From: a virus
Lineage: Duplodnaviria; Caudoviricetes
DNA length: 54,678 nt
Reading direction: 5' to 3' (one strand)
Virus record (IMG/VR): IMGVR_UViG_3300028283_000235
Span: 1 to 54,678 of that record
Shown here one piece after another: positions 1,668-54,295 of this stretch. Position 1 is the stretch's first letter; every line of letters begins with the position of its first letter. The translations under genes and the position numbers were made by a program. The notes under the pieces were generated by a model. The model was not told where the DNA came from. It saw only the letters and a program-made list of their open reading frames with translations, and ran no database searches.

Positions 1668-3191
1668 TTATGATTTTACAAATGTCGCTTGAAGTGTTAA
1701 ATCGTTGGCTTGATCACCAACACTGGCTGATGTTTCTATCTCGACTGTATCGTTTAATCTAATATAATAATTTGTTCCATCTATATCATTAGCTGTTGAT
1801 GCCCACGCTGTTGTAACTGTTATTCCTGATGTTGTATTATCAGTACTAACAGGAGATCCAGCTATCATCACGTTAACTTTTGGATTAGTTGTACCGGCGT
1901 TCACTTTATGGATTACAGAAAATCTAACACAATAAGAAGGACTAGTGTGCCATCTATAATATGTATTTAAATCATTGGCTAGTAACGTAGTGTCTGCTCC
2001 ATCCGAATAAGCACCACCAATTAAGAAAGATTCGTTCCAGACCATTTCAGGATTACCTACATATACTGTACTTGTAGTTAAACCCGCACAACTTGGACCT
2101 GATACTGATATAGTTGACGAAGTAACACCTGTTACTATACCGTAATATACAACACTGGATACAGTATATTTTATAGGATAACCTACTACCACCACACCTG
2201 TTTGATCAACAGATGTAGATATTGTCCCTATTGTGGCAGAAGTTATACCAGTAACATTTGTCCATCTTGATGCTGTTCCACCCCCTGAAGGACCCGATGG
2301 TCCTTGTGCTCCAGATGTGCCCGAACTACCAATGCATGATGTGCCACTACTTCCAGATCTACCGGATTTTAAAAAGGAAATTAAATATCTATTACCATTT
2401 ACAAGAGATCCACCACCATTTAAACAATTTAAACTTGATATTTGGTAAGTTCCTGGTGTTATTTGAGTTGATACAACACCATCGTATATTCCAAAAACAG
2501 CAAGATTTCTCCATTCTTCTATTTTTAATATACCATTTGACCAAGTTGGCAACCAAAATTCTACAACTTGATTATCGTAATCAGTTACGTTTACTATTAA
2601 ATTAGTTATTAGAGATAAATCAGTTACACCATTAGCGTAAAATTCACCGTCGATTGGGTTTACTGTGTTAATAAAAGTCCAAGATCTTGTTGCTCCTCCA
2701 TAAGCACCATCCAGTCCAGATGTGCCAGAAGATCCAGTTAAACCTGATGTTCCTGATGATCCATTACCTGACGTACCGGAAGAACCTGTTATACCTGAAG
2801 ACCCTGATGTTCCACTAGATCCAGATGTTCCTGATGAACCAGTTCTACCACTTGTGCCTGATGTTCCATGAATACCAGAAGTACCAGAAGTACCAGCTGT
2901 TCCATCAGTTCCAGTTCTACCAGAAGATCCACTTTTACCAGATGATCCAGATGCTCCAACACCTGACGTGCCAGATGATCCAAGAAATGATCCGTCTTTA
3001 CCAGATGATCCTGCTAAACCAGACGTGCCACTAGTACCGGCTCCTGTTGTGCCACCAGTTATAATATAAACCCATTCACCGTTGGAATATTTTTCCCACA
3101 GACCTACATTATCTCTACCTAAATAGATATGTTCTGTTTCAGGACTACCTACATTTTGAGGACTTATGATTTGAAATTTCTTGAAACTCAT
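1668..3191 (-). CDS. Gly-X-X collagen-like tail-fibre-like protein
   Basis: 507 aa; ~110-residue GTS/GSS tract, DGAYGGATRSW domain, short second repeat tract, beta-rich C-terminal domain. Confidence 0.75.
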   Translation of the reverse strand: MSFKKFQIISPQNVGSPETEHIYLGRDNVGLWEKYSNGEWVYIITGGTTGAGTSGTSGLAGSSGKDGSFLGSSGTSGVGASGSSGKSGSSGRTGTDGTAGTSGTSGIHGTSGTSGRTGSSGTSGSSGTSGSSGITGSSGTSGNGSSGTSGLTGSSGTSGLDGAYGGATRSWTFINTVNPIDGEFYANGVTDLSLITNLIVNVTDYDNQVVEFWLPTWSNGILKIEEWRNLAVFGIYDGVVSTQITPGTYQISSLNCLNGGGSLVNGNRYLISFLKSGRSGSSGTSCIGSSGTSGAQGPSGPSGGGTASRWTNVTGITSATIGTISTSVDQTGVVVVGYPIKYTVSSVVYYGIVTGVTSSTISVSGPSCAGLTTSTVYVGNPEMVWNESFLIGGAYSDGADTTLLANDLNTYYRWHTSPSYCVRFSVIHKVNAGTTNPKVNVMIAGSPVSTDNTTSGITVTTAWASTANDIDGTNYYIRLNDTVEIETSASVGDQANDLTLQATFVKS

Positions 3192-3258: not shown

Positions 3259-3939
3259 CTAGAACTTCATCTCATATTTTAATTTAAAACTTAATTCATC
3301 ATCTAAACTTTTCATTGTATGAAATTTCTCATCAGATAGAAATATATCCAAATCATTTGAATTGATAATCATGACCCCATTCTTCGCTAAATCTTCCACC
3401 GTTGACGTCATTTCACCAATAAAACGAGTAGCGTCCACAATAAAATAAGTCTTAAAGAATACTGAACAATCTAGAGCTGTGTCCTTTACACAATAATCAC
3501 CAGCCAATCCTACAACATAAACTTCATCAACACCAGAGTCTTTGAAATACTTCTCAACAGATACACCGTCATCGTTTACCCCAACAAATCCACTAAAAGG
3601 GTGTTCTGATTTATTATCACCTTTAGTGAAAATAGGTGCTCCATATAATTGAAGATCAGGATGAAATTTAGCACAGTCCGTAAATTGTACACAATGAGGT
3701 GGCCAGATAATCATATCTTTTCCATCTACTTTAACTACATCCAAAACATTTGTTCCTGGATTATTAGATGTAAATGACATGTGATCTTCTGGATGCCAAT
3801 CTCTTGACACGATCACCATATTAAACTTATCTGAAATTTTATTAATAATAGGCACAATTTTATCCCCAAAAGGTACAGCCAAACTTCCACCTGGCATAAA
3901 ATCTAACTGAGGATCTACGATAAATAACGCTCTTTTCAT
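3259..3939 (-). CDS. pncA: Nicotinamidase/pyrazinamidase
   Basis: IVDPQLDFMPGGSLAV, DWHPEDHMSF, WPPHCVQ, FTKG, GLAGDYCVKDTALD (catalytic D/K/C and metal ligands). Confidence 0.95.
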   Translation of the reverse strand: MKRALFIVDPQLDFMPGGSLAVPFGDKIVPIINKISDKFNMVIVSRDWHPEDHMSFTSNNPGTNVLDVVKVDGKDMIIWPPHCVQFTDCAKFHPDLQLYGAPIFTKGDNKSEHPFSGFVGVNDDGVSVEKYFKDSGVDEVYVVGLAGDYCVKDTALDCSVFFKTYFIVDATRFIGEMTSTVEDLAKNGVMIINSNDLDIFLSDEKFHTMKSLDDELSFKLKYEMKF

Positions 3940-4320: not shown

Positions 4321-5304
4321 TTACTTACTAAAAAAAAAATTTTTCTTAACAATATCTATAGCCTTCTTCGTCCTACTATCCCAATCAGTCCCAGTTACTA
4401 TCTCCATCTTCAAACCTTTAGATTTTAAATAGTTATAATGATAATTACGAAGTTCGTTTCTTTCTTCTATTGGCAATCTTGTGCCGTCTTGTACATATGG
4501 AGCGTCACATTCTAGGAAGATATGAAGATCAAATGTATTTGCTTCCTCAACCCAATTTTCGTATTCAGGTATTTTATCAAAGAAGTATTTAGAATACATC
4601 TTAGTAGTATTTAAATCAGTATCACTAAATAATATTTTATTAGCGTAATGAACTTTACCAATTAAATCTGTGGCGTGTGCTTTCCCAATGTTTACAATAT
4701 CTTCAATTGTAGTTTCAAGTGAGGCTTTTACTATTCTTCTTCCCCACTCAGGCACGTGGTTAGTATTGAAATGTCTAGCTAATATTTCTGTTAATGTAGT
4801 TTTACCTGTTGATTCCGTTCCACATATACATATTTTTCTTACGAAATATGGTCTAGCCTCCTTTGAAATGAAATCCCAATATTTAACAGGATTGTTTCTG
4901 ATTTCGGTTCCGCTAATAGGTACTACTTCTCTTTGTTGATCAAACATAATATGTTCAATTCTCATACATTCAGCCACATAATCACCGTAAGGTTCGGAAG
5001 AGAAGATAACATCTAAATCTGGAAACATTTGTTTAAGATGTTTAGCCCATACTTTTGATACTTCCATATCTGATACAGATGTATAGGGAAGTTTGGCGTC
5101 AGTATATCGAATAACAACTTTATCGTCTGTTCTATACGTATTTAATAACCAATTTAACCTAATGTTTCCAGGTATATCTTCCTCATCTTCATTCATACAA
5201 AGAAGCACATATAAAATATCACATTTATCTTTAGCGAAGTTTATAAGTGCCTCATGTCCTAAATGCATTCCATCAAATTTTCCTAATACCAGCCCTCTTA
5301 TCAT
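4321..5304 (-). CDS. nadR: NadR-like bifunctional NMN adenylyltransferase / nicotinamide riboside kinase, no HTH
   Basis: GKFDGMHLGH (HxGH), SSEPYG, PISGTEIR, then P-loop GTESTGKTT, PEWGR, FSDTD, YVQDGTR. Confidence 0.92.
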   Translation of the reverse strand: MIRGLVLGKFDGMHLGHEALINFAKDKCDILYVLLCMNEDEEDIPGNIRLNWLLNTYRTDDKVVIRYTDAKLPYTSVSDMEVSKVWAKHLKQMFPDLDVIFSSEPYGDYVAECMRIEHIMFDQQREVVPISGTEIRNNPVKYWDFISKEARPYFVRKICICGTESTGKTTLTEILARHFNTNHVPEWGRRIVKASLETTIEDIVNIGKAHATDLIGKVHYANKILFSDTDLNTTKMYSKYFFDKIPEYENWVEEANTFDLHIFLECDAPYVQDGTRLPIEERNELRNYHYNYLKSKGLKMEIVTGTDWDSRTKKAIDIVKKNFFFSK

Positions 5305-6182
5305 ATGAAAATATTTTTTATTTTTTCAAAATTGTTATTTACTATTAAATGATATTGAAATTGTTTTTCAGCCTCTTTCATTTTGATTTCGTTTATTTCC
5401 TTATTTTTGTTCCAAAGATAATCTGATTTAATTTCGAATACTATATCAGTATCTTTAATCTTATAATCTATATAATAATTGTGTTCTTTTTCGTTTAAAT
5501 CCTTATAACTAATTCTCGGTCCTCTTTCTATCAAATCCATTTTACCTATCGATTCAACATATTTTAAAAATTTCAATTCATAAGAACTTTGATAATCGAT
5601 ATCTTTATATTGTCTGATTTTAGCGTTTCCCCAGCCACTATTGGGTTTCCTTCTTCCATTTTTAAAAGCATCAATCGCTGATAAACTCATTCTTTTCCTT
5701 GTCTCATCAGATAGTTTAATCCCTCTTCTCTTTTCAGCCACTTTTAACCAACCTTGTTTTTCTTTTATTTTTTCTTTAGAAGACTCCCATGTAAAAGGGT
5801 TGCCGTTTTTTTCCATCCATGTTTTATGGGATAATTTTTGGTGTTCAGACGGAGATATTCCAAATTTCCCATTTCTTTGCCCCTTATTTTTACATTTACT
5901 ACACAAATGATAATTTTTGATCGGATCTAAATCTCTTATTCTTCTTTCAAAAATTTCTTCACAATCGTCACATTTAACCTTTATAAATTTTGTCCTATAT
6001 TCTCTTTTAGTTTTCAATTTAGACCAATGTAATAAATATTTAGTATTTATCACAGGCATAAATTCAAAATCTTTCTCCCATCTAGCACATTGCGATTTAT
6101 TATTTAATACGATCTCTACATTTTCATGCCCTCTATATACATAACTGATTTTTATTATTATATATAAATGTATAAAAATCAA
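5301..6182 (-). CDS. Free-standing endonuclease: Zn-finger + NUMOD3 + TnsA-like PD-(D/E)xK domain
   Basis: CDDC..CSKC, GIKLSDETRKRMS, YQSSYE...YYIDY...FEIKS; start uncertain (possible 5' frameshift). Confidence 0.7.
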   Translation of the reverse strand: MIFIHLYIIIKISYVYRGHENVEIVLNNKSQCARWEKDFEFMPVINTKYLLHWSKLKTKREYRTKFIKVKCDDCEEIFERRIRDLDPIKNYHLCSKCKNKGQRNGKFGISPSEHQKLSHKTWMEKNGNPFTWESSKEKIKEKQGWLKVAEKRRGIKLSDETRKRMSLSAIDAFKNGRRKPNSGWGNAKIRQYKDIDYQSSYELKFLKYVESIGKMDLIERGPRISYKDLNEKEHNYYIDYKIKDTDIVFEIKSDYLWNKNKEINEIKMKEAEKQFQYHLIVNNNFEKIKNIFI

Positions 6183-6202: not shown

Positions 6203-6775
6203 TCATATTTGATTTTTATACGTTTTTGTCCAATTGACTAATCCGTAAGTGGCTATAGCAGTGATTAAGATATATTCAATTGAAATTAAATTAATCCCTT
6301 TTAAGTAAAATAAAGCTATACTTAGTATATCTACTATAATCCATAATACCCAAGCTTCTAAATATTTTTTTGATAAACCAAATACTGCAACCATACTTAT
6401 AACAGTTATTGTAGCGTCCAGTATAACATACTCAGTTTGGAAAAAACTAAGAATAAAAGTTCCAATTAAACATAGAAAAGCTGTTATTAAACTATATGAT
6501 ATAATATTTTTTAATCCTATTGTTTTAATTTTTTTACCTGCGTCTCTATCCCAATAATACCAACCATATATGGATACTCCAGTAAAAAATGTTTGAAGAA
6601 CCATTTGTCCAAATAATCCATTTTTTAAGAATAAAAAGAAGAAAAGTATTTGCCCAACAATACCAATGGGCCAATTCCATATCTTAGCTCTAGTCGCAAA
6701 TAAAACTGCTATAAGCGATACAATAGATCCAAATAGTTCTAAATAAGATAGTTCGTACCCTAATACTAACATCAT
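6203..6775 (-). CDS. pnuC: PnuC-family nicotinamide riboside / vitamin transporter
   Basis: Multi-TM; IWNWPIG, YGWYYW, DATIT, KKYLEAWVLWIIVD. Confidence 0.92.
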   Translation of the reverse strand: MMLVLGYELSYLELFGSIVSLIAVLFATRAKIWNWPIGIVGQILFFFLFLKNGLFGQMVLQTFFTGVSIYGWYYWDRDAGKKIKTIGLKNIISYSLITAFLCLIGTFILSFFQTEYVILDATITVISMVAVFGLSKKYLEAWVLWIIVDILSIALFYLKGINLISIEYILITAIATYGLVNWTKTYKNQI

Positions 6776-7389
6776 TTTTTAATTAAAGGATGATTTATTC
6801 TATCAAGAAAATCAACAAGAGCTTCGTAAGCTGATTCCATACCAGCCCTATCGTCAATTAAAATACTGTAAAATATTTTAGGACTTGATGAATTAAAGAA
6901 ACTAGGATTCTCATTTATTTTATGGAAAGGAATTTCATTCTTATCAAGATATTCTTTTACAAAATCGTATCTTTCTTTAGCACTACCAGTCCAAACAATT
7001 AATTCAATCCCAGGAACTTTTCCAAGTTTACGAATTAATTCAATTACCATTTCATAAGATTCTCCTCTGTTATGATAATCGAATACAGTATTATCAAAAT
7101 CGTAAGCTACGATTAAATCTCCGTGTAATTTATATTCTGTTACTAGTCTATCTACCACATTTTCGTGGTTCATGTAATGATCTCTCATATATTTAGTTTT
7201 AGATTTATTATTCCACCATTTCTTCAAAAAGTTAATAGTATCAGTAAGAGATTGACCTTGATCAAAATCACCACCATGCACTTCTTCAACTACAAATCTT
7301 TTAAGTATTCTATAAACACTCTGATTATATTTTTCTTTCATTTTTCCTTTTATCATATTGTGCGTTATATCTTTTCTCACTCCAACCAC
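6772..7389 (-). CDS. HAD-superfamily phosphohydrolase (small, capless type); true start probably downstream
   Basis: AYDFDNTV (DxD), IVWTG, INENP, KIFYSILIDDRAG. Confidence 0.75.
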   Translation of the reverse strand: MVGVRKDITHNMIKGKMKEKYNQSVYRILKRFVVEEVHGGDFDQGQSLTDTINFLKKWWNNKSKTKYMRDHYMNHENVVDRLVTEYKLHGDLIVAYDFDNTVFDYHNRGESYEMVIELIRKLGKVPGIELIVWTGSAKERYDFVKEYLDKNEIPFHKINENPSFFNSSSPKIFYSILIDDRAGMESAYEALVDFLDRINHPLIKK

Positions 7390-7567
7390 TTATACTATTA
7401 CAGTAGCCACAACCACACTCTATTATAAATGCCCCACAATGTTTACAATGCCATTCGCTAGCTTCACAATAAGGTGTGCCACAATGAATTAGTTTTAAAT
7501 AATTATTGTTTGGTTCGTGTTTACACTTACTGACCTTATCCCAAAATTTATTTGTTATTTTTTCCAT
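7325..7567 (-). CDS. Small Cys-rich hypothetical protein
   Basis: 80 aa with CGTPYC, CKHC, CGCGYC; overlaps both neighbours in operon fashion. Confidence 0.55.
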   Translation of the reverse strand: MEKITNKFWDKVSKCKHEPNNNYLKLIHCGTPYCEASEWHCKHCGAFIIECGCGYCNSISGWSEKRYNAQYDKRKNERKI

Positions 7568-9653
7568 AATTCAAAGTCATTTTTAAAGAAGCAAAAAAGT
7601 TAATTGGTGCACCAACAAAATATAATGGTTTTGTACCGTCCCAATTCAATTGTCCACTATTAAAATATTTTACATCTGTTATATTATTTACAAATATGTT
7701 AAAATCAACCCATTTCCAATTAATACCTATTCTACCGTTAAGTGTATAGTAAGCATCTATAACTTCAGCCAAATCATATCCCATATAAGGAATATATCCA
7801 ATAACGCTATAATCTTGATATCTATAAGCTAAACCAACAGTAAACCATTTATATTTATAATACCCTTCAACATTACCAATCCATTTAGGAGATAATATCG
7901 GTGTAGTTATCATGTTATTACTTTGAACAACACCACAATCATTATAAGATCCATTTATATTTACACCAAATCCGTTATCACATTTATATCTAAAATCAGT
8001 TTCGATACCTCTCCTATAACTCTTATCTACATTATCGTGTAAAGGGACACCACTAGCTCCAATTTTACCGTTTAATACAATCTCGTTGCTAAAATTCATA
8101 TAAAAGAAATTGAAATCCCAAGAAAGGTTATCAGTTAAAACTCTAAAACCTAACTCGTTATCAATTGATCTTTCAGGATGAAGATTATTATATACGGGAT
8201 TTCCGATAGAATCACATGGTAAATAGTCATATCCATTAAATATATCATTTCTAGATGGTTCTCTATTTGTAACACCAAAACTGTAATAGAAAACTGTATT
8301 ATTATACTTGTAATCAATACCTAAATCATAATTAATAAAATTCCAAGTAAATGTTGGGAGATTAACGTTATAATGAGGCATGTAATATTCATCATATGAA
8401 ATATCGCCATTGTATTTGAAATCTGTATATCTATATTGAATATCACCAAAAAGATTTAACCCTTCCCAAACATTGTATCTAGCTTTAAAATAAGCACTTA
8501 ACTCATTCCTGTAACCAGTGTTTGTGTACATATACCCATAAAGATCATTATTATCAGAGTGCTGTCTGTTATATGTATAAGCATGAGTTCCAACGTAAAA
8601 ATTAAATCTACTGATTCTCTTAGTGAGATTAACGTAAGCACCAACCCAATTAGATTTGAAATTATATTTATCTATACCATAATTAACTGAGCTATCAGAA
8701 GATGGAATTCCTAAAAAGTTTTTATAATCAAATGTATAATAACCAGTTAAAAAATTATAATAGACAGCGTAATTCAATCTTGTATTTGAATTAAAATCTA
8801 TAGCGTGATGGAATTGAAGATGGTATTGTTCAAATTGATCATGCTCTTTATCTGTTGCTCCATTAGTTCTTCTATCTCTCCAAACTGAATCATAAGGAAC
8901 TCCTAACCACGCTAATTGATTTTGTTGTCTTCCAGCAAAAGCTATAAATTTTAGTTTGCTCTTACCTATATCATAGAATGAATTTAAGAAAAAACTCTGA
9001 CTATGATTACCAGAGTGGTATTTATATCCGTCTGTTGATATATCAGAAAACTGAATATAGAATCCCCCTTTTTTCCATTTTTGATCTATTTGGAAACCAA
9101 TTTTCATAGAATTGAATGATCCATATCCAAATGTCGCAGATACACTAGTTTTTATTGGTAAATGAGAATCAAAATTTAAACTTCCACCAAAACTAGATAC
9201 ACCGTTTTTTGTTAATCCGTTACCCCTTTGGATTTGAATCATATCAAGTGTCTGAAAGAAATCTGGATAATTAGAGAAGTAACATCCCTGATCCTCAGGT
9301 TCATTCATGGGCACTCCATTCAAAGTGAAGTTGATACGAGTCTGATCAATACCTCTTAATCTAATATATGAATATCCCCAAGGGCTACCTGCATCTGAAT
9401 ATGATGTAATAGCTGGTGTAGTATTTAATATAGTAGATGGCTCTTGTCCGTAATTTTTTGTTTCTATTTCTTGTTTTGAAAGATTATCAAAAGTAATAGG
9501 AGTAATAAAAGTTGCTTGGTGTGGATAAGGTGCAGAAACTTCTATTTGCTGAAGTTTAATTGTGTCCTTATGTAGAGTATATCCTTTAAGGGTATCTTGA
9601 CTAAATCCATTTATAAATAAAATGGAGAAAAATAAAATTAATATTTTTTTCAT
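7548..9653 (-). CDS. TonB-dependent outer-membrane receptor, Bacteroidota pnuC-associated type
   Basis: Signal peptide; plug motifs YIRLRGIDQTRINFTLNGVPMNEPE, IQIQRG, FGGSLNF; barrel motifs NREPSRND, PERSIDNELG, VNNITDVKY. Confidence 0.92.
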   Translation of the reverse strand: MKKILILFFSILFINGFSQDTLKGYTLHKDTIKLQQIEVSAPYPHQATFITPITFDNLSKQEIETKNYGQEPSTILNTTPAITSYSDAGSPWGYSYIRLRGIDQTRINFTLNGVPMNEPEDQGCYFSNYPDFFQTLDMIQIQRGNGLTKNGVSSFGGSLNFDSHLPIKTSVSATFGYGSFNSMKIGFQIDQKWKKGGFYIQFSDISTDGYKYHSGNHSQSFFLNSFYDIGKSKLKFIAFAGRQQNQLAWLGVPYDSVWRDRRTNGATDKEHDQFEQYHLQFHHAIDFNSNTRLNYAVYYNFLTGYYTFDYKNFLGIPSSDSSVNYGIDKYNFKSNWVGAYVNLTKRISRFNFYVGTHAYTYNRQHSDNNDLYGYMYTNTGYRNELSAYFKARYNVWEGLNLFGDIQYRYTDFKYNGDISYDEYYMPHYNVNLPTFTWNFINYDLGIDYKYNNTVFYYSFGVTNREPSRNDIFNGYDYLPCDSIGNPVYNNLHPERSIDNELGFRVLTDNLSWDFNFFYMNFSNEIVLNGKIGASGVPLHDNVDKSYRRGIETDFRYKCDNGFGVNINGSYNDCGVVQSNNMITTPILSPKWIGNVEGYYKYKWFTVGLAYRYQDYSVIGYIPYMGYDLAEVIDAYYTLNGRIGINWKWVDFNIFVNNITDVKYFNSGQLNWDGTKPLYFVGAPINFFASLKMTLNYGKNNK

Positions 9654-9666
9654 ATTTTAGATTATT

Positions 9667-10602
9667 TTAGATGTACGAAGCCTCTAAGAGATTGTCTATG
9701 GCTTTATAATTATTATCCCTATCGAAATAAGGAGGATTGTTTCTTTTATGATTACCAGCAACAATCATTCTTTCAACTTTATCAATGAGTTTCTCGTCAA
9801 TTTTTGCAGCCTTCACTTTAGATGTTTCTTTCATGTAATGACCGATATTCTGCCATTTAATATCACGCTTATCGTCAATTTTAACTATGTGTTTCTTAAA
9901 CATCCCTAAATTAGAGTTGTTCCCACCTGTGAAGTCTTCTCTAATAGTCAAATATTTATCAATATCATCGTATTTGAAACCAATTTCGTCTTCGTCAGTC
10001 TGATCAAACCATAGCCCAGCAGAAGGAGCCTTAGTGATAATCCTTTCAGGTACACCTAATTCTCTTGCTAATTCTCTAATTTCATATTTGAAAAAATCAG
10101 CAATAGGTTCGATATCAACCCCCGCTCCACCGTCACCAGCCTTGGTATAATAACCAAGGTACTCTTCTGTTTTATTAGTTGTCCCCAAAACAAGATAACC
10201 AAGTTCTTCGGCTAATGCCCTGAGTGTTACCATTCTAAGACGAGCTTTAATATTAGGAAGGACAAGTTTAGAAGAGTTGCCAACCATTGGTGTGATTTCT
10301 CCACCAAAAAGAACAGATGCTGTTCTACCTAAATTAATTGTATCTAAAGTTACACCAAATGCTTCGGCAACAAGTTTGGCGTCTTCTTCGTCTTCAACTC
10401 TTAACTGCTGACCTTCAGCAGCGCAGGGTAAAGCAAAACACCTAACATTTTCTTTACCAACAGCTTTGACCGCTAATCCTAAAGATACAGCAGAGTCAAT
10501 GCCACCAGATAGTCCGAGTACAAAACCTTTAAAACCTGTTTTTTCAACGTAACTTTTCAACCACATAGAAGTGATTTCGATATTTTCTTTAATGTTTTTC
10601 AT
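9667..10602 (-). CDS. nadE: NH3-dependent NAD+ synthetase
   Basis: GLSGGIDSA, NIKARLRM, GTTNKTE, YYTKAGDG, KAPSAGLW..QTDEDEIG; no glutaminase domain. Confidence 0.95.
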   Translation of the reverse strand: MKNIKENIEITSMWLKSYVEKTGFKGFVLGLSGGIDSAVSLGLAVKAVGKENVRCFALPCAAEGQQLRVEDEEDAKLVAEAFGVTLDTINLGRTASVLFGGEITPMVGNSSKLVLPNIKARLRMVTLRALAEELGYLVLGTTNKTEEYLGYYTKAGDGGAGVDIEPIADFFKYEIRELARELGVPERIITKAPSAGLWFDQTDEDEIGFKYDDIDKYLTIREDFTGGNNSNLGMFKKHIVKIDDKRDIKWQNIGHYMKETSKVKAAKIDEKLIDKVERMIVAGNHKRNNPPYFDRDNNYKAIDNLLEASYI

Positions 10603-10883
10603 AAATATTTCCTTCCTTTTTTAATCCATTTATAATCGTAATTTTCAACACTGCTGCTTTTTCCGTCTGTTGGTATTACTATTGTAATTGAATGTAAATA
10701 TTTTATACACTCGTACATTTGTATGTATTTTCCAAACCAAATGTATTCACCGATGCCCATCTTTGTTGGAAGATAAGCGTACTTTATAACTGATTTTTTG
10801 CTCCCTTCTGTGAGGTTCCCACACATTAGATTTGGATCAGCCTGCACAAATATTTCTTTAGATTTTTTCATGATATGTTTCAC
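10599..10883 (-). CDS. Hypothetical protein
   Basis: Co-oriented ORF overlapping both neighbours. Confidence 0.5.
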   Translation of the reverse strand: MKHIMKKSKEIFVQADPNLMCGNLTEGSKKSVIKYAYLPTKMGIGEYIWFGKYIQMYECIKYLHSITIVIPTDGKSSSVENYDYKWIKKGRKYL

Positions 10884-11373
10884 TTGTTTTAAAACTCCAA
10901 TTTTTATTAGGAATATTCTTTGTTTTCTTAAAGTATTTCAAAAACGGTTTCCAATCTTTCTCAGGTCTAAAACCAGCCTTATCTTCAAAATAAACATTAA
11001 AGTAAGGTTTCTTATCGTAACAACCAAAACATCCACTAGCTTCAGAAATTTCAGGGTTTTCATTAACATATTTAAAGTGAATTCCATCCATTTCAAACTG
11101 TTCCATATAACTCTTTATCTCATTAGGATAAGAAGAAGTATGAATAAACAAAACCATATCAGGACGATTCTTACTAATATACTGTAAGGTTTCCTTAGCG
11201 TAAGGATAATAATTGATTCTAAACTCTTCACCACTTTTTCTATAATCTGGTTTAGATATAACACCATGAATATCAAAGGCGTGATAAGTTTCATACCACT
11301 GTTTGTTAAAAGCGTGAGCAAACATTTTTTCAGTCCACTCGAGTAATGCTGGTTTATAAAATGGATTTCTCAT
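10858..11373 (-). CDS. HAD-like protein, distant paralogue of 6772-7389
   Basis: AFDIHGVI, FIHTS, VNENPE, KPYFNVYFEDKAG. Confidence 0.65.
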   Translation of the reverse strand: MRNPFYKPALLEWTEKMFAHAFNKQWYETYHAFDIHGVISKPDYRKSGEEFRINYYPYAKETLQYISKNRPDMVLFIHTSSYPNEIKSYMEQFEMDGIHFKYVNENPEISEASGCFGCYDKKPYFNVYFEDKAGFRPEKDWKPFLKYFKKTKNIPNKNWSFKTSETYHEKI

Positions 11374-11374
11374 A

Positions 11375-12550
11375 TTACGAAATTTTTAAAACTCTTTTTG
11401 CTAATTCAATAGTTTCTTTATCACCTGTATATTTACCAGGTTCGTCTGATAATTTAACACAGGGTACCCATTCACCATCAATTAAAACTGAGTCCATCTT
11501 TATTACAATATTCAAAGGTTTCACTCCAGGAATGTCGTTGGTAAACCAAGTTCCAATTCCATATGATGTATTAATTCTACCTCTAAAACAATTTTCAATT
11601 TTTAAAACTTTATCAAAATCAAGTGCGTCACTAAAAACAATAGTTTTAGATTTAATTACACTATCATCAATTCCTAATTTCTTATAATGTTCAATAACCT
11701 TTTCACCAAATTTAATAGGATCTCCACTATCGTGCCTCACTCCATCAAATGTTTTAGCAAAAAGTGTGTCGAAAGAATTGAAGAAAGATTCAGTTGTATA
11801 GGTATCAGATAAGGCTATACCTAAGTCTCCACCATATACTTTAACCCAATTCTGTAAGGCTATTTTGTTTGCCTCGTGGAAACCATATTTGGCTCCGTGA
11901 AACATAATCCATTCGTGTGCCATTGTACCAATGGCTTTTATACCGTATTTCAAAGCGAAATATACATTAGATGTACCTACAAAATTATCGCCCGCTGATA
12001 ACATAAGATGGTTAATAACAGCACTCTGGTTATCGTGTGAAAATCTACGACGAGTACCGAAGTCTGCAAACTTAATACCAAAAGTCTTAAAATCTTTACC
12101 TTTTTTAGTGTTGATTTCATATAATTGTTTAACGTCTTCTGGGTATTCCTGGCCAGTCATTCTATAATAAGTTTCGGAAATCATTGCAAGTAAAGGAACT
12201 TCCCAAAGGATTGTTCTAAACCAATATCCTTCAATTAAAATTTCCACATCACCACCTTTTTGTGTGATCTGAACTTCGTCTCCATCAAATTCGTAACCAC
12301 TAATATAGTCAATGTAAAAAGGAGATAAGAATCTGATTTTTTTAAGGTTATCTCTACCCGAGAACTTTTCACTGGTAATGAAGGCCAAATTGTCTATCTC
12401 TTTTCTGAGTTCAACTGCAAACCCTTCAGGGAACTGTGTTTTACCACGATTGATAAATTTATATCTCACTATTTCTTTAGGATATAAAGCAATGACGGCC
12501 TGCTGTTGCGTTAGCTTATATAAATCATTATCTAAAATTCCGTGTATCAT
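11375..12550 (-). CDS. pncB: Nicotinate phosphoribosyltransferase
   Basis: LDNDLYK, DFGTRRR, GTSNV, GTMAHEW, GVRHDSGDP, FSDALD, KLSDEPGK. Confidence 0.96.
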   Translation of the reverse strand: MIHGILDNDLYKLTQQQAVIALYPKEIVRYKFINRGKTQFPEGFAVELRKEIDNLAFITSEKFSGRDNLKKIRFLSPFYIDYISGYEFDGDEVQITQKGGDVEILIEGYWFRTILWEVPLLAMISETYYRMTGQEYPEDVKQLYEINTKKGKDFKTFGIKFADFGTRRRFSHDNQSAVINHLMLSAGDNFVGTSNVYFALKYGIKAIGTMAHEWIMFHGAKYGFHEANKIALQNWVKVYGGDLGIALSDTYTTESFFNSFDTLFAKTFDGVRHDSGDPIKFGEKVIEHYKKLGIDDSVIKSKTIVFSDALDFDKVLKIENCFRGRINTSYGIGTWFTNDIPGVKPLNIVIKMDSVLIDGEWVPCVKLSDEPGKYTGDKETIELAKRVLKIS

Positions 12551-13475: not shown

Positions 13476-13718
13476 ATGAAAAGATTGTACAGAACACCTA
13501 AAGACCGTATCCTCGGTGGAGTTTGCGGGGGAATTGGAAAATACTTTGATATTGATCCAGTGATTGTTAGATTAATTTGGGCTTTATTCGGATTTGCTTT
13601 CGGATTTGCTTTCTTACTTTACATCATTGCTTGGATAATTATACCTAAAGAAACAATAGTTGTGATTACTCCTTGTTGTGAGACTAAAGATTGTGAAACA
13701 GAAGAAACTAAATCCTAA
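13476..13718 (+). CDS. pspC: PspC-domain membrane protein
   Basis: KRLYR...DRILGGVCGGIGKYFDIDPVIVRL...LYIIAWIIIP. Confidence 0.93.
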   Translation: MKRLYRTPKDRILGGVCGGIGKYFDIDPVIVRLIWALFGFAFGFAFLLYIIAWIIIPKETIVVITPCCETKDCETEETKS

Positions 13719-14380
13719 ACGTTTATAGGTTTTCCGAAAAGAATTTCCTTTACTTCAGTACCAACGTTTATAGTTCTTTTGTACCAGATATGTTCGGGGT
13801 CTAGGAAGATAGCATCTTTACCATATTCCCCGAATATTTCTTTTATTACATCAATATCATGAACCACAGGAGCATCATGCCTTAATAACATTTTACCCAC
13901 TTTACCACACGCCTCTATGAAATAACCAATAGTACTTAACAACTTAATCAAATGATCTATTAACGTTCCAGTACTATCTATTTTAGTTGTGTGTCCAAAT
14001 CCTGATATTTTTATACCGTATTTTGTTTTCTTTCCAAATATTACAGCGTCAGCGTAGGGATCGTTGTTATTCACATCTATCGCAGTCCAAAAATTGAGTT
14101 CCTGGTCTTGTACGACCTTATCTGGTGAGTTTATTCTGACGTGCCCACCAATATCATCATAGGCTAAATTAACTAGTGTGAAGAGGTTATTTTTGATAAG
14201 TGGTTTATTATTATTTACCAAGTACCACTTATGTTTTGAGTAAATATCATCGAATGCTTTTTTATCCGTGTTAAGAAGTTTATGACGTAATTCTTGATTC
14301 TGTCTGAATTCTCTGTACTCTGGTGGTCTAAACTCATCAGATTCGAATATTTTATATGAAGCTATATATCTGTTTTTCAT
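13715..14380 (-). CDS. Hypothetical protein, tandem paralogue A (probable internal head protein)
   Basis: Shares ELRHKLLN, NNLFTLVNLAYD.IGGH, FWTAID, DPYAD.VIFG, YGIK.SG.GH with the next gene; N-terminus YKIFES. Confidence 0.75.
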   Translation of the reverse strand: MKNRYIASYKIFESDEFRPPEYREFRQNQELRHKLLNTDKKAFDDIYSKHKWYLVNNNKPLIKNNLFTLVNLAYDDIGGHVRINSPDKVVQDQELNFWTAIDVNNNDPYADAVIFGKKTKYGIKISGFGHTTKIDSTGTLIDHLIKLLSTIGYFIEACGKVGKMLLRHDAPVVHDIDVIKEIFGEYGKDAIFLDPEHIWYKRTINVGTEVKEILFGKPINV

Positions 14381-15015
14381 ATAACTGGGCTCCCTAACAT
14401 TACTTTTTTAACTTTTTTACCGTGTTTAATTCTTTCGTACCATGTATTACTTTCATCGACGAAATGTGCGTCAGAATTTGGAAAAATCTTATTTATAATT
14501 TCAATATCTTGTACTACTGGTACATTTTTCCTTAAAGATACTACAGCAGGAACTCCTTCAACCTCAGCCCAATAACCTGGTTTCCTCAATAAGTCCATCA
14601 TGTGTCTCATTAGTTCTTCTTTTCCTCTGACTGATTCGTTATGACCAATTCCAGATAATTTTATACCATATTTATTTCTACCGAATATTACAACATCAGC
14701 GTAAGGATCGTCGTTTATATCTATTGCTGTCCAAAAAGTCATATCTTTATCTCTAACAACTTTGTCTGGATAATTTATTTTTGGATGTCCTCCAATACTA
14801 TCGTAGGCTAAATTTACAAGCGTGAAAAGATTATTTTTAACGTCTTTTCTATTACCTTCAATTGAATACCATTTGTGTTTTGAATATAATTCGTTAAATT
14901 TTTTCTTATCCATATTAAGGAGTTTGTGACGCAACTCTAGATTATCCTTAAAATTTCTATATTTAGGTAATCTAGAATCAGCCTCAAACACTTTATATTT
15001 CAATAGATATATCAA
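14377..15015 (-). CDS. Hypothetical protein, tandem paralogue B
   Basis: ORF 14377-15078; likely TTG start at 15015 overlapping the upstream TGA, giving an N-terminus that aligns with paralogue A. Confidence 0.7.
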   Translation of the reverse strand: MIYLLKYKVFEADSRLPKYRNFKDNLELRHKLLNMDKKKFNELYSKHKWYSIEGNRKDVKNNLFTLVNLAYDSIGGHPKINYPDKVVRDKDMTFWTAIDINDDPYADVVIFGRNKYGIKLSGIGHNESVRGKEELMRHMMDLLRKPGYWAEVEGVPAVVSLRKNVPVVQDIEIINKIFPNSDAHFVDESNTWYERIKHGKKVKKVMLGSPVI

Positions 15016-15935
15016 AGTTTGGCTCTTATTTTTTTGAATTCGTCTTCTTTTACAAGTAAAACTTTTGAATCTGTCCAACCTGGTTGATAACCACCACCGT
15101 GTACATTATTTACAGCAACAGCAGAATGCGGATGATAACATTCTTCAACACTCATAAGTTTAAAATCATTTTTCTTAGGACCAAAACAATAGTCTAAGAA
15201 TATTGGTAAATCTTTTTTCTCGTGTAATTCCATTTTATTTTTAAGAAAATTCAGAACTCTTGGAGTATCTACTTTACTCATCATACCAACATGTGAAAGA
15301 ACTGATACAGAACCATCTGTTTCCATTATTGGACCGTTTAGTTCTCTCAAACATTTTATAGTAGTATCTGGATCTGTGAAATCAAATTCTTTTTTAAAAA
15401 CATCTTCGTAAGCACCTTGTATGCTTTTACATAATGAAGTTGTTGGCATATCGAAAACGTGTTTTACGAATTTCATATATCTACCAATCATCTCAGGAGC
15501 GTTAGCGAGTCTAGCCTTATTATAAGGAACTATCACGTAATGATTATCCATCTCTGAAACCACACCAGATGATCTTGAGTACCAAAAATCTATGCTCCTG
15601 TACTTATCTGGAAAATTACCCCACGTTTTTGATTTATCTATAACGTGAAGAAGAATATAATTATGATACCTACCTTGTGGAAATCTCAATTCGTGTTTTG
15701 ATCCGTCAACTAACATCATTGATGGAACTTCTTCTTTAGTAAAGATACTTCTACTTAATTCAACTCTAGTAAGATCCCATTCACTACATTCTGTTTTAAG
15801 AAGGTGAATGAACTCATCTTCGTTCAATGGAGTATTGTATGATTTATAATCTAAATCATGTACTTCATTTATAAGATTGTAGGATTTATATTTCAGTATC
15901 ACCAGACATAAGATTTTTTTAATCTTTAAACCCAT
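15012..15935 (-). CDS. Hypothetical protein (probable internal head protein)
   Basis: 307-aa ORF; N-terminal ILKYKSYNLINE motif. Confidence 0.65.
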   Translation of the reverse strand: MGLKIKKILCLVILKYKSYNLINEVHDLDYKSYNTPLNEDEFIHLLKTECSEWDLTRVELSRSIFTKEEVPSMMLVDGSKHELRFPQGRYHNYILLHVIDKSKTWGNFPDKYRSIDFWYSRSSGVVSEMDNHYVIVPYNKARLANAPEMIGRYMKFVKHVFDMPTTSLCKSIQGAYEDVFKKEFDFTDPDTTIKCLRELNGPIMETDGSVSVLSHVGMMSKVDTPRVLNFLKNKMELHEKKDLPIFLDYCFGPKKNDFKLMSVEECYHPHSAVAVNNVHGGGYQPGWTDSKVLLVKEDEFKKIRAKL

Positions 15936-53836: not shown

Positions 53837-54295
53837 TTAATCGATATCCGTCATTTGATATAAAGCTATTTTATTCTTTACAGAATAATTCATATTGTCT
53901 ATATCCTTCAATGCTATTCTTAAAAATTCTATATGACCGTCAAGAATATCCTTCCTTTGCTCTAATTTAGCCACGTCCCATTCAATTAGTCTCATTCTTT
54001 CAGTAGCGTTGTTTGGGTAAGGGGAAAGAGCACCAGCGTAATATTCAAATCTTTCTTTTTTGAAAGCCTTTATCTTTGGCATCATCTTGGCTAACTCGTA
54101 AACCATATTCTTTATCTGCTCGTTGAGCTGTTGATAAAGACTTATAGTTTCAGCCTGTAAAGGTATAACGTCTTTAGCACTACAATTAAGTCTTTTAGAT
54201 ATATCATCTATTGTTTTAGTCCAGTAATCTTCTCTTTCGCCTAACTTAGCAATTAATTTATCAATACCAGTACCTTCTTCTTCTAATTCGGGCAT
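53837..54295 (-). CDS. UvsY-like recombination mediator
   Basis: Helical 152 aa; RFEYYAG...IEWD...IEFLRIALKDIDNMNYSVKNKI resembles the T4 UvsY pattern. Confidence 0.6.
   Translation of the reverse strand: MPELEEEGTGIDKLIAKLGEREDYWTKTIDDISKRLNCSAKDVIPLQAETISLYQQLNEQIKNMVYELAKMMPKIKAFKKERFEYYAGALSPYPNNATERMRLIEWDVAKLEQRKDILDGHIEFLRIALKDIDNMNYSVKNKIALYQMTDID

Follow-up and report, generated by a model that had tools for sequence, protein, structure and literature searches.

A TonB-dependent receptor linked to pnuC and nadR in a huge-phage relative, and its probable role in the salvage of nicotinamide riboside

Introduction

The closest described phage counterpart of the locus reported here is NARP3, the PnuC and NadR pair of a coliphage (Bas30_87/Bas30_86) that imports nicotinamide riboside and restores the nicotinamide adenine dinucleotide (NAD+) depleted by Sir2-HerA, half-maximal rescue being obtained at a few micromolar riboside (PMC13464706). 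Our subject is a TonB-dependent receptor encoded in the IMG/VR virus record IMGVR_UViG_3300028283_000235, a stretch of 54,678 nt that was analysed as a whole and is referred to below as the window; the receptor gene lies in an island of NAD salvage genes, upstream of pnuC and nadR. Like NARP3, the window encodes a PnuC-type transporter and a bifunctional NadR without the DNA-binding domain, and the two would be expected to turn riboside into nicotinamide mononucleotide (NMN) and then into NAD+. However, NARP3 is a two-gene module of Enterobacteriaceae phages, and its text uses neither the term "TonB" nor "outer membrane" (PMC13464706), whereas the window has a receptor gene ahead of the pair, belongs to a phage with Bacteroidota hosts, adds pncA, pncB and nadE to the island, and encodes a TonB homologue. 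Among gut jumbo phages, pnuC was reported in 68 of 174 NAD-jumbo phages, again in a text containing neither term (PMC11662467).

TonB-dependent receptors and Pnu-family carriers also occur together in Bacteroidota, in thiamine units composed of a thiamine pyrophosphate (TPP) riboswitch, a receptor and PnuT, including that of OMthi in Bacteroides thetaiotaomicron (PMC6977713). The window resembles OMthi-PnuT in that an inner-membrane carrier of the Pnu family comes after a TonB-dependent receptor, the two phage proteins being distant homologues of the thiamine proteins, but the thiamine unit differs in having the TPP riboswitch, receptors of 710–740 amino acids (aa) with extra insertions, and another plug motif. 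A receptor-pnuC-nadR operon of Bacteroidota, described below, shares with the window its gene order, a receptor identity of 40–45%, the plug motif, an invariant Gln after the putative signal peptide and the lack of a riboswitch; the receptors of this cellular operon are about 664 aa long and mostly end in Phe or Trp, whereas the window copy has loop insertions, a Leu end, a tail and inserted open reading frames (ORFs). Among solved structures, PqqU (PDB 9c4o) and YncD (6v81) are the best matches, with template-modelling (TM) scores of 0.76–0.82, and they are about as compact as the receptor. The cargo of PqqU is likewise a small cofactor. Both, however, have just 15% sequence identity to the receptor and do not share its gene context.

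Phage receptors of this type have been read in other ways. In 2021 a "TonB-dependent receptor (SusC)" was noted in Mar_Mega_1/LR745206 and interpreted as serving carbohydrate uptake (PMC9723777); LR745206 holds a relative of the window receptor, which is itself a 701-aa classical transporter without a SusD neighbour. A preprint of October 2026 covers 1,603 phage outer-membrane proteins, including a 22-strand receptor of Lak phages that is reported as transcribed (bioRxiv 10.64898/2026.10.24.761521). That preprint gives "nicotinamide mononucleotide transport" among the neighbours, favours surface remodelling and contains neither "PnuC" nor "NadR". Supplementary tables aside, full-text searches of the literature yielded no paper that connects a receptor of this type with nicotinamide riboside or with NadR. 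The new part, as judged from gene order and homology, would be that NARP3-type salvage has gained an outer-membrane tier, built on a cellular receptor family not described before; TonB-dependent receptors of phages were already known.

Results

The receptor belongs to a family linked to pnuC and nadR

The receptor probably performs the outer-membrane step in a salvage route that spans three compartments, its substrate being nicotinamide riboside or a pyridine nucleoside or nucleotide very close to it. The pyridine reading is favoured because the receptor family is linked to pnuC and nadR, the TPP-linked pairs are distant, and neither a riboswitch nor a thiamine pyrophosphokinase was found. In a large protein collection the receptor has 1232 relatives at E ≤ 1e-10, and those with names are receptors of Bacteroidota (Mucilaginibacter, Bernardetia and metagenome-assembled genomes, MAGs) with 43–45% identity at 95–99% coverage and E of about 1e-153. 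A genome scan with the single receptor sequence returned no relative; a scan with the alignment matched 381 stretches, 354 of which encode one. Gene context was counted in the best 80 of these 354 loci, with pnuC and nadR located by tblastn. It is evident that the association is a close one: nadR lies directly downstream of the receptor gene in 73 of the 80 loci, and pnuC is present in 64, standing between receptor and nadR in 62 and represented only by its start on two short contigs. The loci without nadR are seven, of which three are on contigs that stop less than 350 nt from the receptor, while four have at least 3 kb downstream with neither nadR nor pnuC. With nadR in 73/80 and pnuC in 64/80, the gene orders indicate that the receptor-pnuC-nadR operon is the normal home of this family.

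The window belongs to the nadR-linked family by full-length similarity, by its plug motif and by the presence of pnuC and nadR downstream on the same strand. The motif, NEPEDQG..YFSNYPD, is common to the window, to the huge-phage records LR756501, LR756502 and LR745206 and to the nadR-linked receptors, and is diverged in Lak phages. Three ORFs are inserted within the receptor-pnuC-nadR order of the window. An 80-aa ORF and a HAD-like ORF intervene between receptor and pnuC, so that of the receptor-PnuC pair proposed in an earlier, sequence-only reading of this DNA both members are present but are not directly adjacent; the third, a homing-endonuclease-like ORF, separates pnuC from nadR.

A few placements in the cellular set deserve a comment. 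Receptor contigs L041, L046, L023 and L036 were binned to MAGs of Thalassovita, Williamsia, Staskawiczbacteria and Marinamargulisbacteria, respectively, and the L036 receptor is identical to a copy in a Flavobacteriales MAG (L038). These non-Bacteroidota placements are probably binning errors and not transfers. Among the "cellular" sequences, the receptor, PnuC and NadR nearest to the window clade come from an 11-kb contig in a Bacteroidales MAG bin (L005; its NadR is 51% identical), and this contig may itself be phage DNA.

The thiamine-linked receptors form a separate group

Five genomes holding a nadR-linked receptor were searched for TPP riboswitches, and all five carry one. The riboswitch stands ahead of a 710–740-aa receptor in four of them (one of the four riboswitch matches lies below the family cut-off), and a 197-aa PnuC-like gene follows two of these four receptors, which is the OMthi/PnuT arrangement. 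The sequence-only reading had stated that receptor-pnuC pairs of Bacteroidota are usually under a TPP riboswitch; such pairs were thus found in two genomes, in agreement with PMC6977713. The phage receptor is only 26–31% identical to the four TPP-linked receptors, compared to 40–45% for the nadR-linked ones, and for the phage PnuC the values are 25% with the two TPP-linked PnuT proteins and 31–42% with nadR-linked PnuC. The TPP-linked receptors also have a different plug motif and several extra insertions.

Two trees were computed. The first, made with FastTree, has 125 rows (the window together with the receptors of 88 loci and with 36 of 120 collection proteins, P0039–P0120 being omitted); the second, a quick IQ-TREE run under LG+G4, has 59 rows (the window, four phage records, 22 of 30 IMG/VR loci, 28 of 80 cellular loci and four TPP-linked receptors), L114, L116, L117, L118, L120, L128, L131 and L132 having been left out as near-copies or incomplete. 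In both, a branch with 100% support separates the four TPP-linked rows from all phage and nadR-linked rows. The phylogeny proposed earlier as a check on the substrate thus puts the window receptor on the nadR-linked side.

With regard to riboswitches, nothing reached the Rfam gathering threshold in the window and the four phage loci, and no riboswitch was found in the 20 of the 80 cellular loci that were scanned; those 20 gave matches only for two tRNAs, a group II intron and a Flavo-1 RNA, which do not lie directly upstream of a receptor. The window receptor accordingly departs from the OMthi type in having no TPP riboswitch upstream and no TPP-linked proteins as nearest relatives. The gap from the nadE stop to the receptor ATG is 13 nt, as had been stated. 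Thiamine pyrophosphokinase (PF04263) was found neither in the window nor in the four complete megaphage records. The earlier claims that riboswitch and pyrophosphokinase are both lacking are thereby borne out for the window. The proposal that the substrate would be a pyridine compound and not thiamine is supported by the linkage to nadR and pnuC, by the absence of a riboswitch and of a thiamine pyrophosphokinase, and by the distance of the TPP-linked pairs. Its description as an unusual specificity needs to be divided: a nadR context is the rule in this family, whereas no receptor described as specific for nicotinamide riboside was found in print.

The receptor is predicted to be an intact TonB-dependent transporter

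The receptor ORF is free of internal stops. Pfam recognises a plug (PF07715, residues 51–157, E 1e-9) and a barrel (PF00593, residues 227–658, E 1.7e-19), and the protein can be divided into a putative signal peptide (1–18), a TonB-box-like stretch (about 33–41), the plug (about 45–169), the barrel (170–695) and a tail to residue 701. An AlphaFold2 model, based on a 120-sequence alignment of the family, has a predicted local distance difference test (pLDDT) value of 81.7 and a predicted TM-score (pTM) of 0.81. Its DSSP string contains 22 barrel strands (170–695) around the plug, and an N-terminal helix at residues 2–13 was taken as the signal peptide. Foldseek comparison with the PDB retrieved the classical TonB-dependent transporters PqqU, Fiu, FecA and YncD (TM-scores of 0.7–0.8, E down to 4e-32), all with just 12–15% sequence identity to the receptor.

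Gln19, which follows the hydrophobic N-terminus, is invariant in a 24-row alignment and at least 90% conserved in 120 rows; a Gln is usual after the signal-peptidase site in Bacteroidota, and the position of Gln19 fits this habit. A conserved L-x-E-V-x-V-like stretch at residues 33–41 resembles a TonB box. Of the alignment of 120 family members 65 columns show no variation, and the window copy retains every one of them. The model indicates that the receptor is an intact TonB-dependent transporter with its plug inside a 22-strand barrel. The earlier description of a 701-aa receptor with plug and barrel amid NAD genes thus holds, and the signal peptide named with them is a likely one; structure prediction was one of the checks suggested at that time.

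SusC-like transporters are around 1000 aa long and have an N-terminal extension and a partner gene for a SusD-like lipoprotein. A SusC-type role was considered and ruled out by the 701-aa size, the fold matches to classical transporters and the neighbours, which are nadE and a small Cys-rich ORF; no member of the SusD family was found among ten scanned neighbour ORFs.

Relatives of the receptor recur in huge phages

Of the 10 kb around the receptor, 87% can be aligned to LR756501/LR756503, at a DNA identity of 85%. LR756501 is a 735-kb "uncultured phage" of the Mahaphage clade with Bacteroidetes hosts (Al-Shayeb et al., PMC7162821). The window is a linear virus record of 23% estimated completeness, PHROGs matched three of ten scanned ORFs, and the window yielded no recognised structural gene. 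By sequence comparison its assignment to a phage would rest mainly on LR756501. The earlier statement that the receptor is carried by a phage is thus supported by the 85% identity to LR756501, by the virus record and by one PHROG match.

Receptor relatives are encoded in 24 of 50,697 reference phage records (four huge "uncultured phage" records, 15 Lak phages and five short fragments), and relatives of PnuC in 654, mainly from Vibrio and Salmonella phages. In LR756502 (642 kb) and LR745206 (635 kb) receptor, pnuC and nadR stand back to back without spacers; in LR756501 pnuC and nadR are adjacent; and in Lak-C1 about 5 kb separate the receptor from nadR-pnuC, the trio falling within about 9 kb. 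IMG/VR yielded 30 loci with a receptor relative, the longest contig measuring 483 kb, and all receptor ORFs but one have full length (29 of 30, 643–709 aa). The neighbours at these loci include nadR at most about 4 kb downstream (27), pnuC (18), pncB (7), nadE (6) and pncA (6). The receptor has been retained across phages whose copies share only 28–50% identity.

The phage rows of the 59-row tree occupy at least four positions: the Lak phages alone, a 13-row clade that includes LR756502 and LR745206, a 12-row clade with the window that nests among cellular rows, and one single row. Because of these separate positions it appears that receptors were exchanged with hosts more than once, although long branches make the deep order unsafe. 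As judged from these sequences, megaphages probably captured the Bacteroidota operon more than once.

The window encodes a TonB homologue

A TonB homologue with an N-terminal transmembrane helix and a TonB C-terminal domain is encoded 44 kb away from the receptor module (Table 1). The corresponding ORF of LR756501 (L096, 1495–2295, minus strand) is 266 aa long and has a Pro-rich spacer between its transmembrane helix and its C-terminal domain; compared with it, the window copy is 98% and 88% identical in two parts and lacks exactly the spacer, by a clean deletion of 76 residues. We infer from their co-occurrence that the phage TonB may serve the receptor. When the mature receptor was co-folded with the C-terminal domain of the phage TonB, the score was 0.00, which was counted neither for nor against binding. 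During the search for partner proteins one ExbD match, which was below the threshold and contained internal stops, was discarded. The ORF beside the TonB gene has a weak UvsY-like match below the cut-off.

Alternative explanations

TonB-dependent transporters typically serve solutes that are too large or too scarce for porins, which would speak for a nucleotide as substrate. The same three-tier route might thus import NMN, NAD+ or nicotinic acid riboside, with trimming by a HAD-like phosphatase or by host enzymes. The island holds two HAD-like ORFs, one of them between receptor and pnuC, and the 171-aa ORF upstream of nadE is its distant paralogue; both could be pyridine-nucleotide phosphatases. 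The first probably starts at the ATG at 7356 (its Atlas record begins at residue 12) and belongs to unnamed, mostly viral Atlas clusters; PDB sequence searches gave nothing below E 0.3 for either ORF, and the 171-aa ORF has no Pfam or NCBIfam family. However, the HAD-like ORFs show no signal peptide, they are missing from the receptor modules of LR756502 and LR745206, and the 80 cellular loci contain a single HAD-like match, which is not adjacent to the module. PnuC and the kinase domain of NadR, moreover, act on the riboside (PMC13464706, PMC2330246). We therefore regard import of a nucleotide or of the nicotinic acid riboside as unlikely, and nicotinamide riboside as the better candidate.

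A second possibility is that the receptor remodels the cell surface, acting in superinfection exclusion or as a decoy, so that transport is incidental. A surface role has been proposed for phage outer-membrane proteins, including the Lak 22-strand receptor, in the preprint cited above (bioRxiv 10.64898/2026.10.24.761521), and the divergence of the receptor gives it some support. When 14 genes were compared codon by codon between the window and LR756501, the receptor was the most diverged: its aa identity is 0.72, against 0.87–0.99 for the 13 neighbouring genes, and its rate of nonsynonymous substitution (dN) is 0.199, against 0.007–0.078. All insertions of the window copy relative to LR756501 are within the predicted extracellular loops 4, 6 and 10. 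On the other hand, the synonymous rate (dS) is raised as well (1.25, against 0.31–0.80), and the dN/dS ratio of 0.16 (0.016–0.151 in the neighbours) indicates that the gene is clearly under purifying selection. Identity is 0.82 in the plug, 0.72 in the strands, 0.61 in the loops and 0.50 in the turns, which means that strands and turns have diverged along with the loops, and the 25 residues at either end are 92–100% identical to those of LR756501. Positive selection on surface loops was accordingly rejected as not specific. Since dS is raised too, the pattern suggests to us that the interior of the gene was exchanged with that of a more distant allele, and we do not take it to prove positive selection. 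The receptor keeps a TonB-box-like stretch, its plug and the plug motif of the family, and a surface role leaves the recurrent linkage to pnuC and nadR (27 of 30 loci) unexplained. A role at the surface instead of in pyridine uptake is in our view quite unlikely.

The receptor might also be a non-functional passenger, i.e. a recently captured host gene that is unexpressed or whose product is unable to assemble. What speaks for this is the C-terminus, which had been noted earlier to lack the terminal aromatic residue, and the sequence does read that way: the final strand (685–695) terminates in Leu694, where cellular relatives have a terminal Phe, and a tail of 7 aa (695–701) follows, so the usual C-terminal aromatic β-signal is missing. 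An aliphatic end is not peculiar to the window, however. The last residue of the 80 cellular copies is Phe in 50, Leu in 17, Trp in six and another residue in seven (Phe or Trp in 56/80), and that of the 29 full-length IMG/VR copies is Phe in 12, Ile in eight, Leu in eight and Met in one, none of them tailed; tail-free aliphatic ends thus occur in 17 of 80 cellular and 17 of 29 full-length IMG/VR copies. In the alignment the tail is confined to the nearest clade of the window, being 100% identical in LR756501 and present in other forms in P0003–P0005. Because the ATG of the 80-aa Cys-rich ORF is located inside the tail codons, the tail is most simply seen as a by-product of the 20-nt overlap between the two genes. 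Given also that the gene is intact, under purifying selection and kept in phages with receptors at 28–50% identity, a passenger is very unlikely.

Thiamine uptake of the Bacteroides thetaiotaomicron kind, with a pair of the OMthi/PnuT type, is extremely unlikely: the Bacteroidota do have TPP-riboswitch-receptor-PnuT units with distant homologues of both phage proteins, but these lie on the far side of the 100% branch at markedly lower identities (26–31% and 25%, against 40–45% and 31–42%), and the window shows neither the riboswitch nor a thiamine pyrophosphokinase.

The NAD salvage island and its surroundings

All genes of the NAD salvage island are on the minus strand in the ORF list of the window. 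In the direction of transcription they are pncB, the 171-aa ORF, a 94-aa ORF, nadE, the receptor gene, the 80-aa ORF, the HAD-like ORF, pnuC, the homing-endonuclease-like ORF, nadR, the gene of a 119-aa lipoprotein, pncA and the genes of collagen-repeat, fibre-like proteins (Table 1). PncB, NadE and PnuC exceed the curated NCBIfam cut-offs. PnuC matches the solved Neisseria PnuC 4QTN in the PDB (E 5e-10). NadR matches PDB NadR 8x7f over residues 4–321 (E 1.8e-39), and its residues 3–311 match TIGR01526 from position 67 of the full-length NadR model onwards, from which it follows that the DNA-binding part is missing. The 3' end of the 80-aa Cys-rich ORF overlaps the HAD-like ORF. The lipoprotein gave no Pfam, NCBIfam or PHROG match and falls in unnamed, mostly viral Atlas clusters.

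Two ORFs that interrupt the island look mobile. The one between pnuC and nadR has a counterpart in LR756501 limited to its last 28 codons, and its relatives adjoin nadR in 4 of the 30 IMG/VR loci; at position 5729, DNA and RNA-library contigs are 15 nt shorter than the window. Relatives of the other, the GIY-YIG/NUMOD3-like ORF upstream of pncB, recur beside pncB in 8 of the 30 loci. The two collagen-repeat proteins, probably fibre proteins, share an N-terminal domain, and their repeats coincide with joints and raised depth in contigs from the sequencing runs.

Two RNA libraries from lake water contain contigs that agree without differences with parts of the receptor gene (e.g. 8206–8640), nadR, pncA and pncB, and in two DNA runs coverage is even over the whole 20 kb. 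The RNA-library matches are a weak hint of expression, as DNA may be present in such libraries and the contigs are strandless; stretches that these contigs do not cover were not taken to be silent. Contigs over the two adjacent paralogous ORFs at 13715–15078 have the top depth in both RNA libraries (28 and 19), the DNA runs being flat there.

Table 1. Positions of the receptor gene, the NAD salvage island and other features in the window
Feature	Position	Strand	Evidence or remark
Collagen-repeat protein (G-x-y, Ser/Thr-rich)	3–1079	−	
Collagen-repeat protein (G-x-y, Ser/Thr-rich)	1668–3191	−	
PncA nicotinamidase	3259–3939	−	NF008623 E 6.9e-38 (below cut-off); isochorismatase fold
Predicted lipoprotein, 119 aa	3941–4300	−	Lipobox with Cys; 88% identity to LR756501
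NadR-like bifunctional NMN adenylyltransferase and ribosylnicotinamide kinase	4321–5304	−	TIGR01526 E 1.6e-56; AAA_28 E 1.4e-23
Homing-endonuclease-like insertion, 293 aa	5301–6182	−	Between pnuC and nadR; weak Pfam matches only
PnuC-type inner-membrane transporter, 190 aa	6203–6775	−	PF04973 E 1.3e-45; TIGR01528 100 bits, cut-off 42
HAD-like hydrolase, mostly viral family	6772–7389	−	PHROG 1238 E 2.4e-28; weak BT0820 HAD match
Cys-rich small ORF, 80 aa, zinc-ribbon-like	7325–7567	−	91% aa identity to LR756501; without family
TonB-dependent receptor, 701 aa	7548–9653	−	Pfam plug and barrel; AlphaFold2 model
NadE, NH3-type NAD synthetase	9667–10602	−	PF02540 E 4.7e-63; TIGR00552 216 bits
94-aa ORF	10599–10883	−	Between 171-aa ORF and nadE
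171-aa ORF, distant paralogue of HAD-like ORF	10858–11373	−	BLASTP E 2e-4, 26% identity
PncB nicotinate phosphoribosyltransferase	11375–12550	−	NF003704 438 bits, cut-off 379
GIY-YIG/NUMOD3-like ORF, 216 aa	12555–13205	−	Upstream of pncB; not in LR756501
Paralogous ORF	13715–14380	−	About 53% identical to the next ORF
Paralogous ORF	14377–15078	−	Adjacent to the preceding ORF
TonB homologue, 169 aa	53272–53781	−	PF03544 E 2.7e-22
152-aa ORF beside TonB gene	53837–54295	−	UvsY-like Pfam match E 0.003 (below cut-off)

Discussion

According to the reading that we prefer, the receptor would bind nicotinamide riboside at the cell surface and pass it to the periplasm with the aid of TonB, from either host or phage, and of host ExbBD. 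PnuC would then carry the riboside across the inner membrane to the cytoplasm, where NadR would phosphorylate it to NMN and adenylate the product to NAD+, while PncA, PncB and NadE, complemented by a nicotinic acid mononucleotide (NaMN) adenylyltransferase of the host, would recycle nicotinamide. The receptor-pnuC-nadR trio would be a captured operon of the Bacteroidota host. It would add to a NARP3-type PnuC and NadR pathway the outer-membrane tier suited to Bacteroidota, and would sustain NAD+ through a long megaphage infection and/or against defences that deplete NAD+. The identities of the genes, the fold, the family to which the receptor belongs by sequence and gene context, purifying selection and the recurrence in phages are what the analysis shows; it is the ligand, the outer-membrane insertion, the use of TonB and the counter-defence purpose that we infer.

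Several points weigh against this route. It should be underlined that the substrate is assigned from gene context alone, and this applies to every member of the receptor family; moreover, nadR occurs without a recognisable pnuC beside the receptor in 11 of the 80 cellular and at least nine viral loci. Nicotinamide riboside is a small molecule, and to our knowledge enterobacteria need no dedicated receptor for it. The receptor is the most diverged of the 14 genes compared, with a raised dS too, and an interaction at the surface would also fit this. It lacks the usual terminal aromatic residue and has a 7-aa tail, and this odd C-terminus might impair assembly by the β-barrel assembly machinery (BAM). 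The window TonB lacks the Pro-rich spacer that would span the periplasm, ExbB and ExbD were found neither in the window nor in the four megaphage records, and no TonB C-terminal domain was found in LR756502, LR745206 or Lak-C1. Finally, the matches of NadR and PncA are strong but under the curated NCBIfam equivalog cut-offs, and the window has no NaMN adenylyltransferase (nadD) apart from NadR, so that the pncA-pncB-nadE branch relies on the host.

In Bacteroidota, vitamin B12 is taken up via an outer-membrane receptor, and the phage receptor mirrors both this route and that for thiamine. A wider proposal is the following: a widespread TonB-dependent family of Bacteroidota would be dedicated to nicotinamide riboside, the third vitamin after B12 and B1, and its route would have been captured repeatedly by megaphages, one lineage adding its own TonB, to feed the reconstitution of NAD+ against NAD+-depleting immunity. 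We consider this proposal as a whole quite conceivable, but stop short of calling it probable.

If the preferred reading is true, two published interpretations of megaphage receptors, i.e. carbohydrate uptake and surface remodelling, would be corrected, and the PnuC and NadR counter-defence pathway would gain an outer-membrane tier. The virus would then be investing in a protein that has to be exported, folded by BAM and energised by TonB, which is sensible only for long infections such as those of phages of 0.5–0.7 Mb. For the Bacteroidota, a substrate would be named for a large orphan transporter family present in at least 354 species-level genome stretches, and nicotinamide riboside would join the short list of vitamins with dedicated TonB-dependent receptors.

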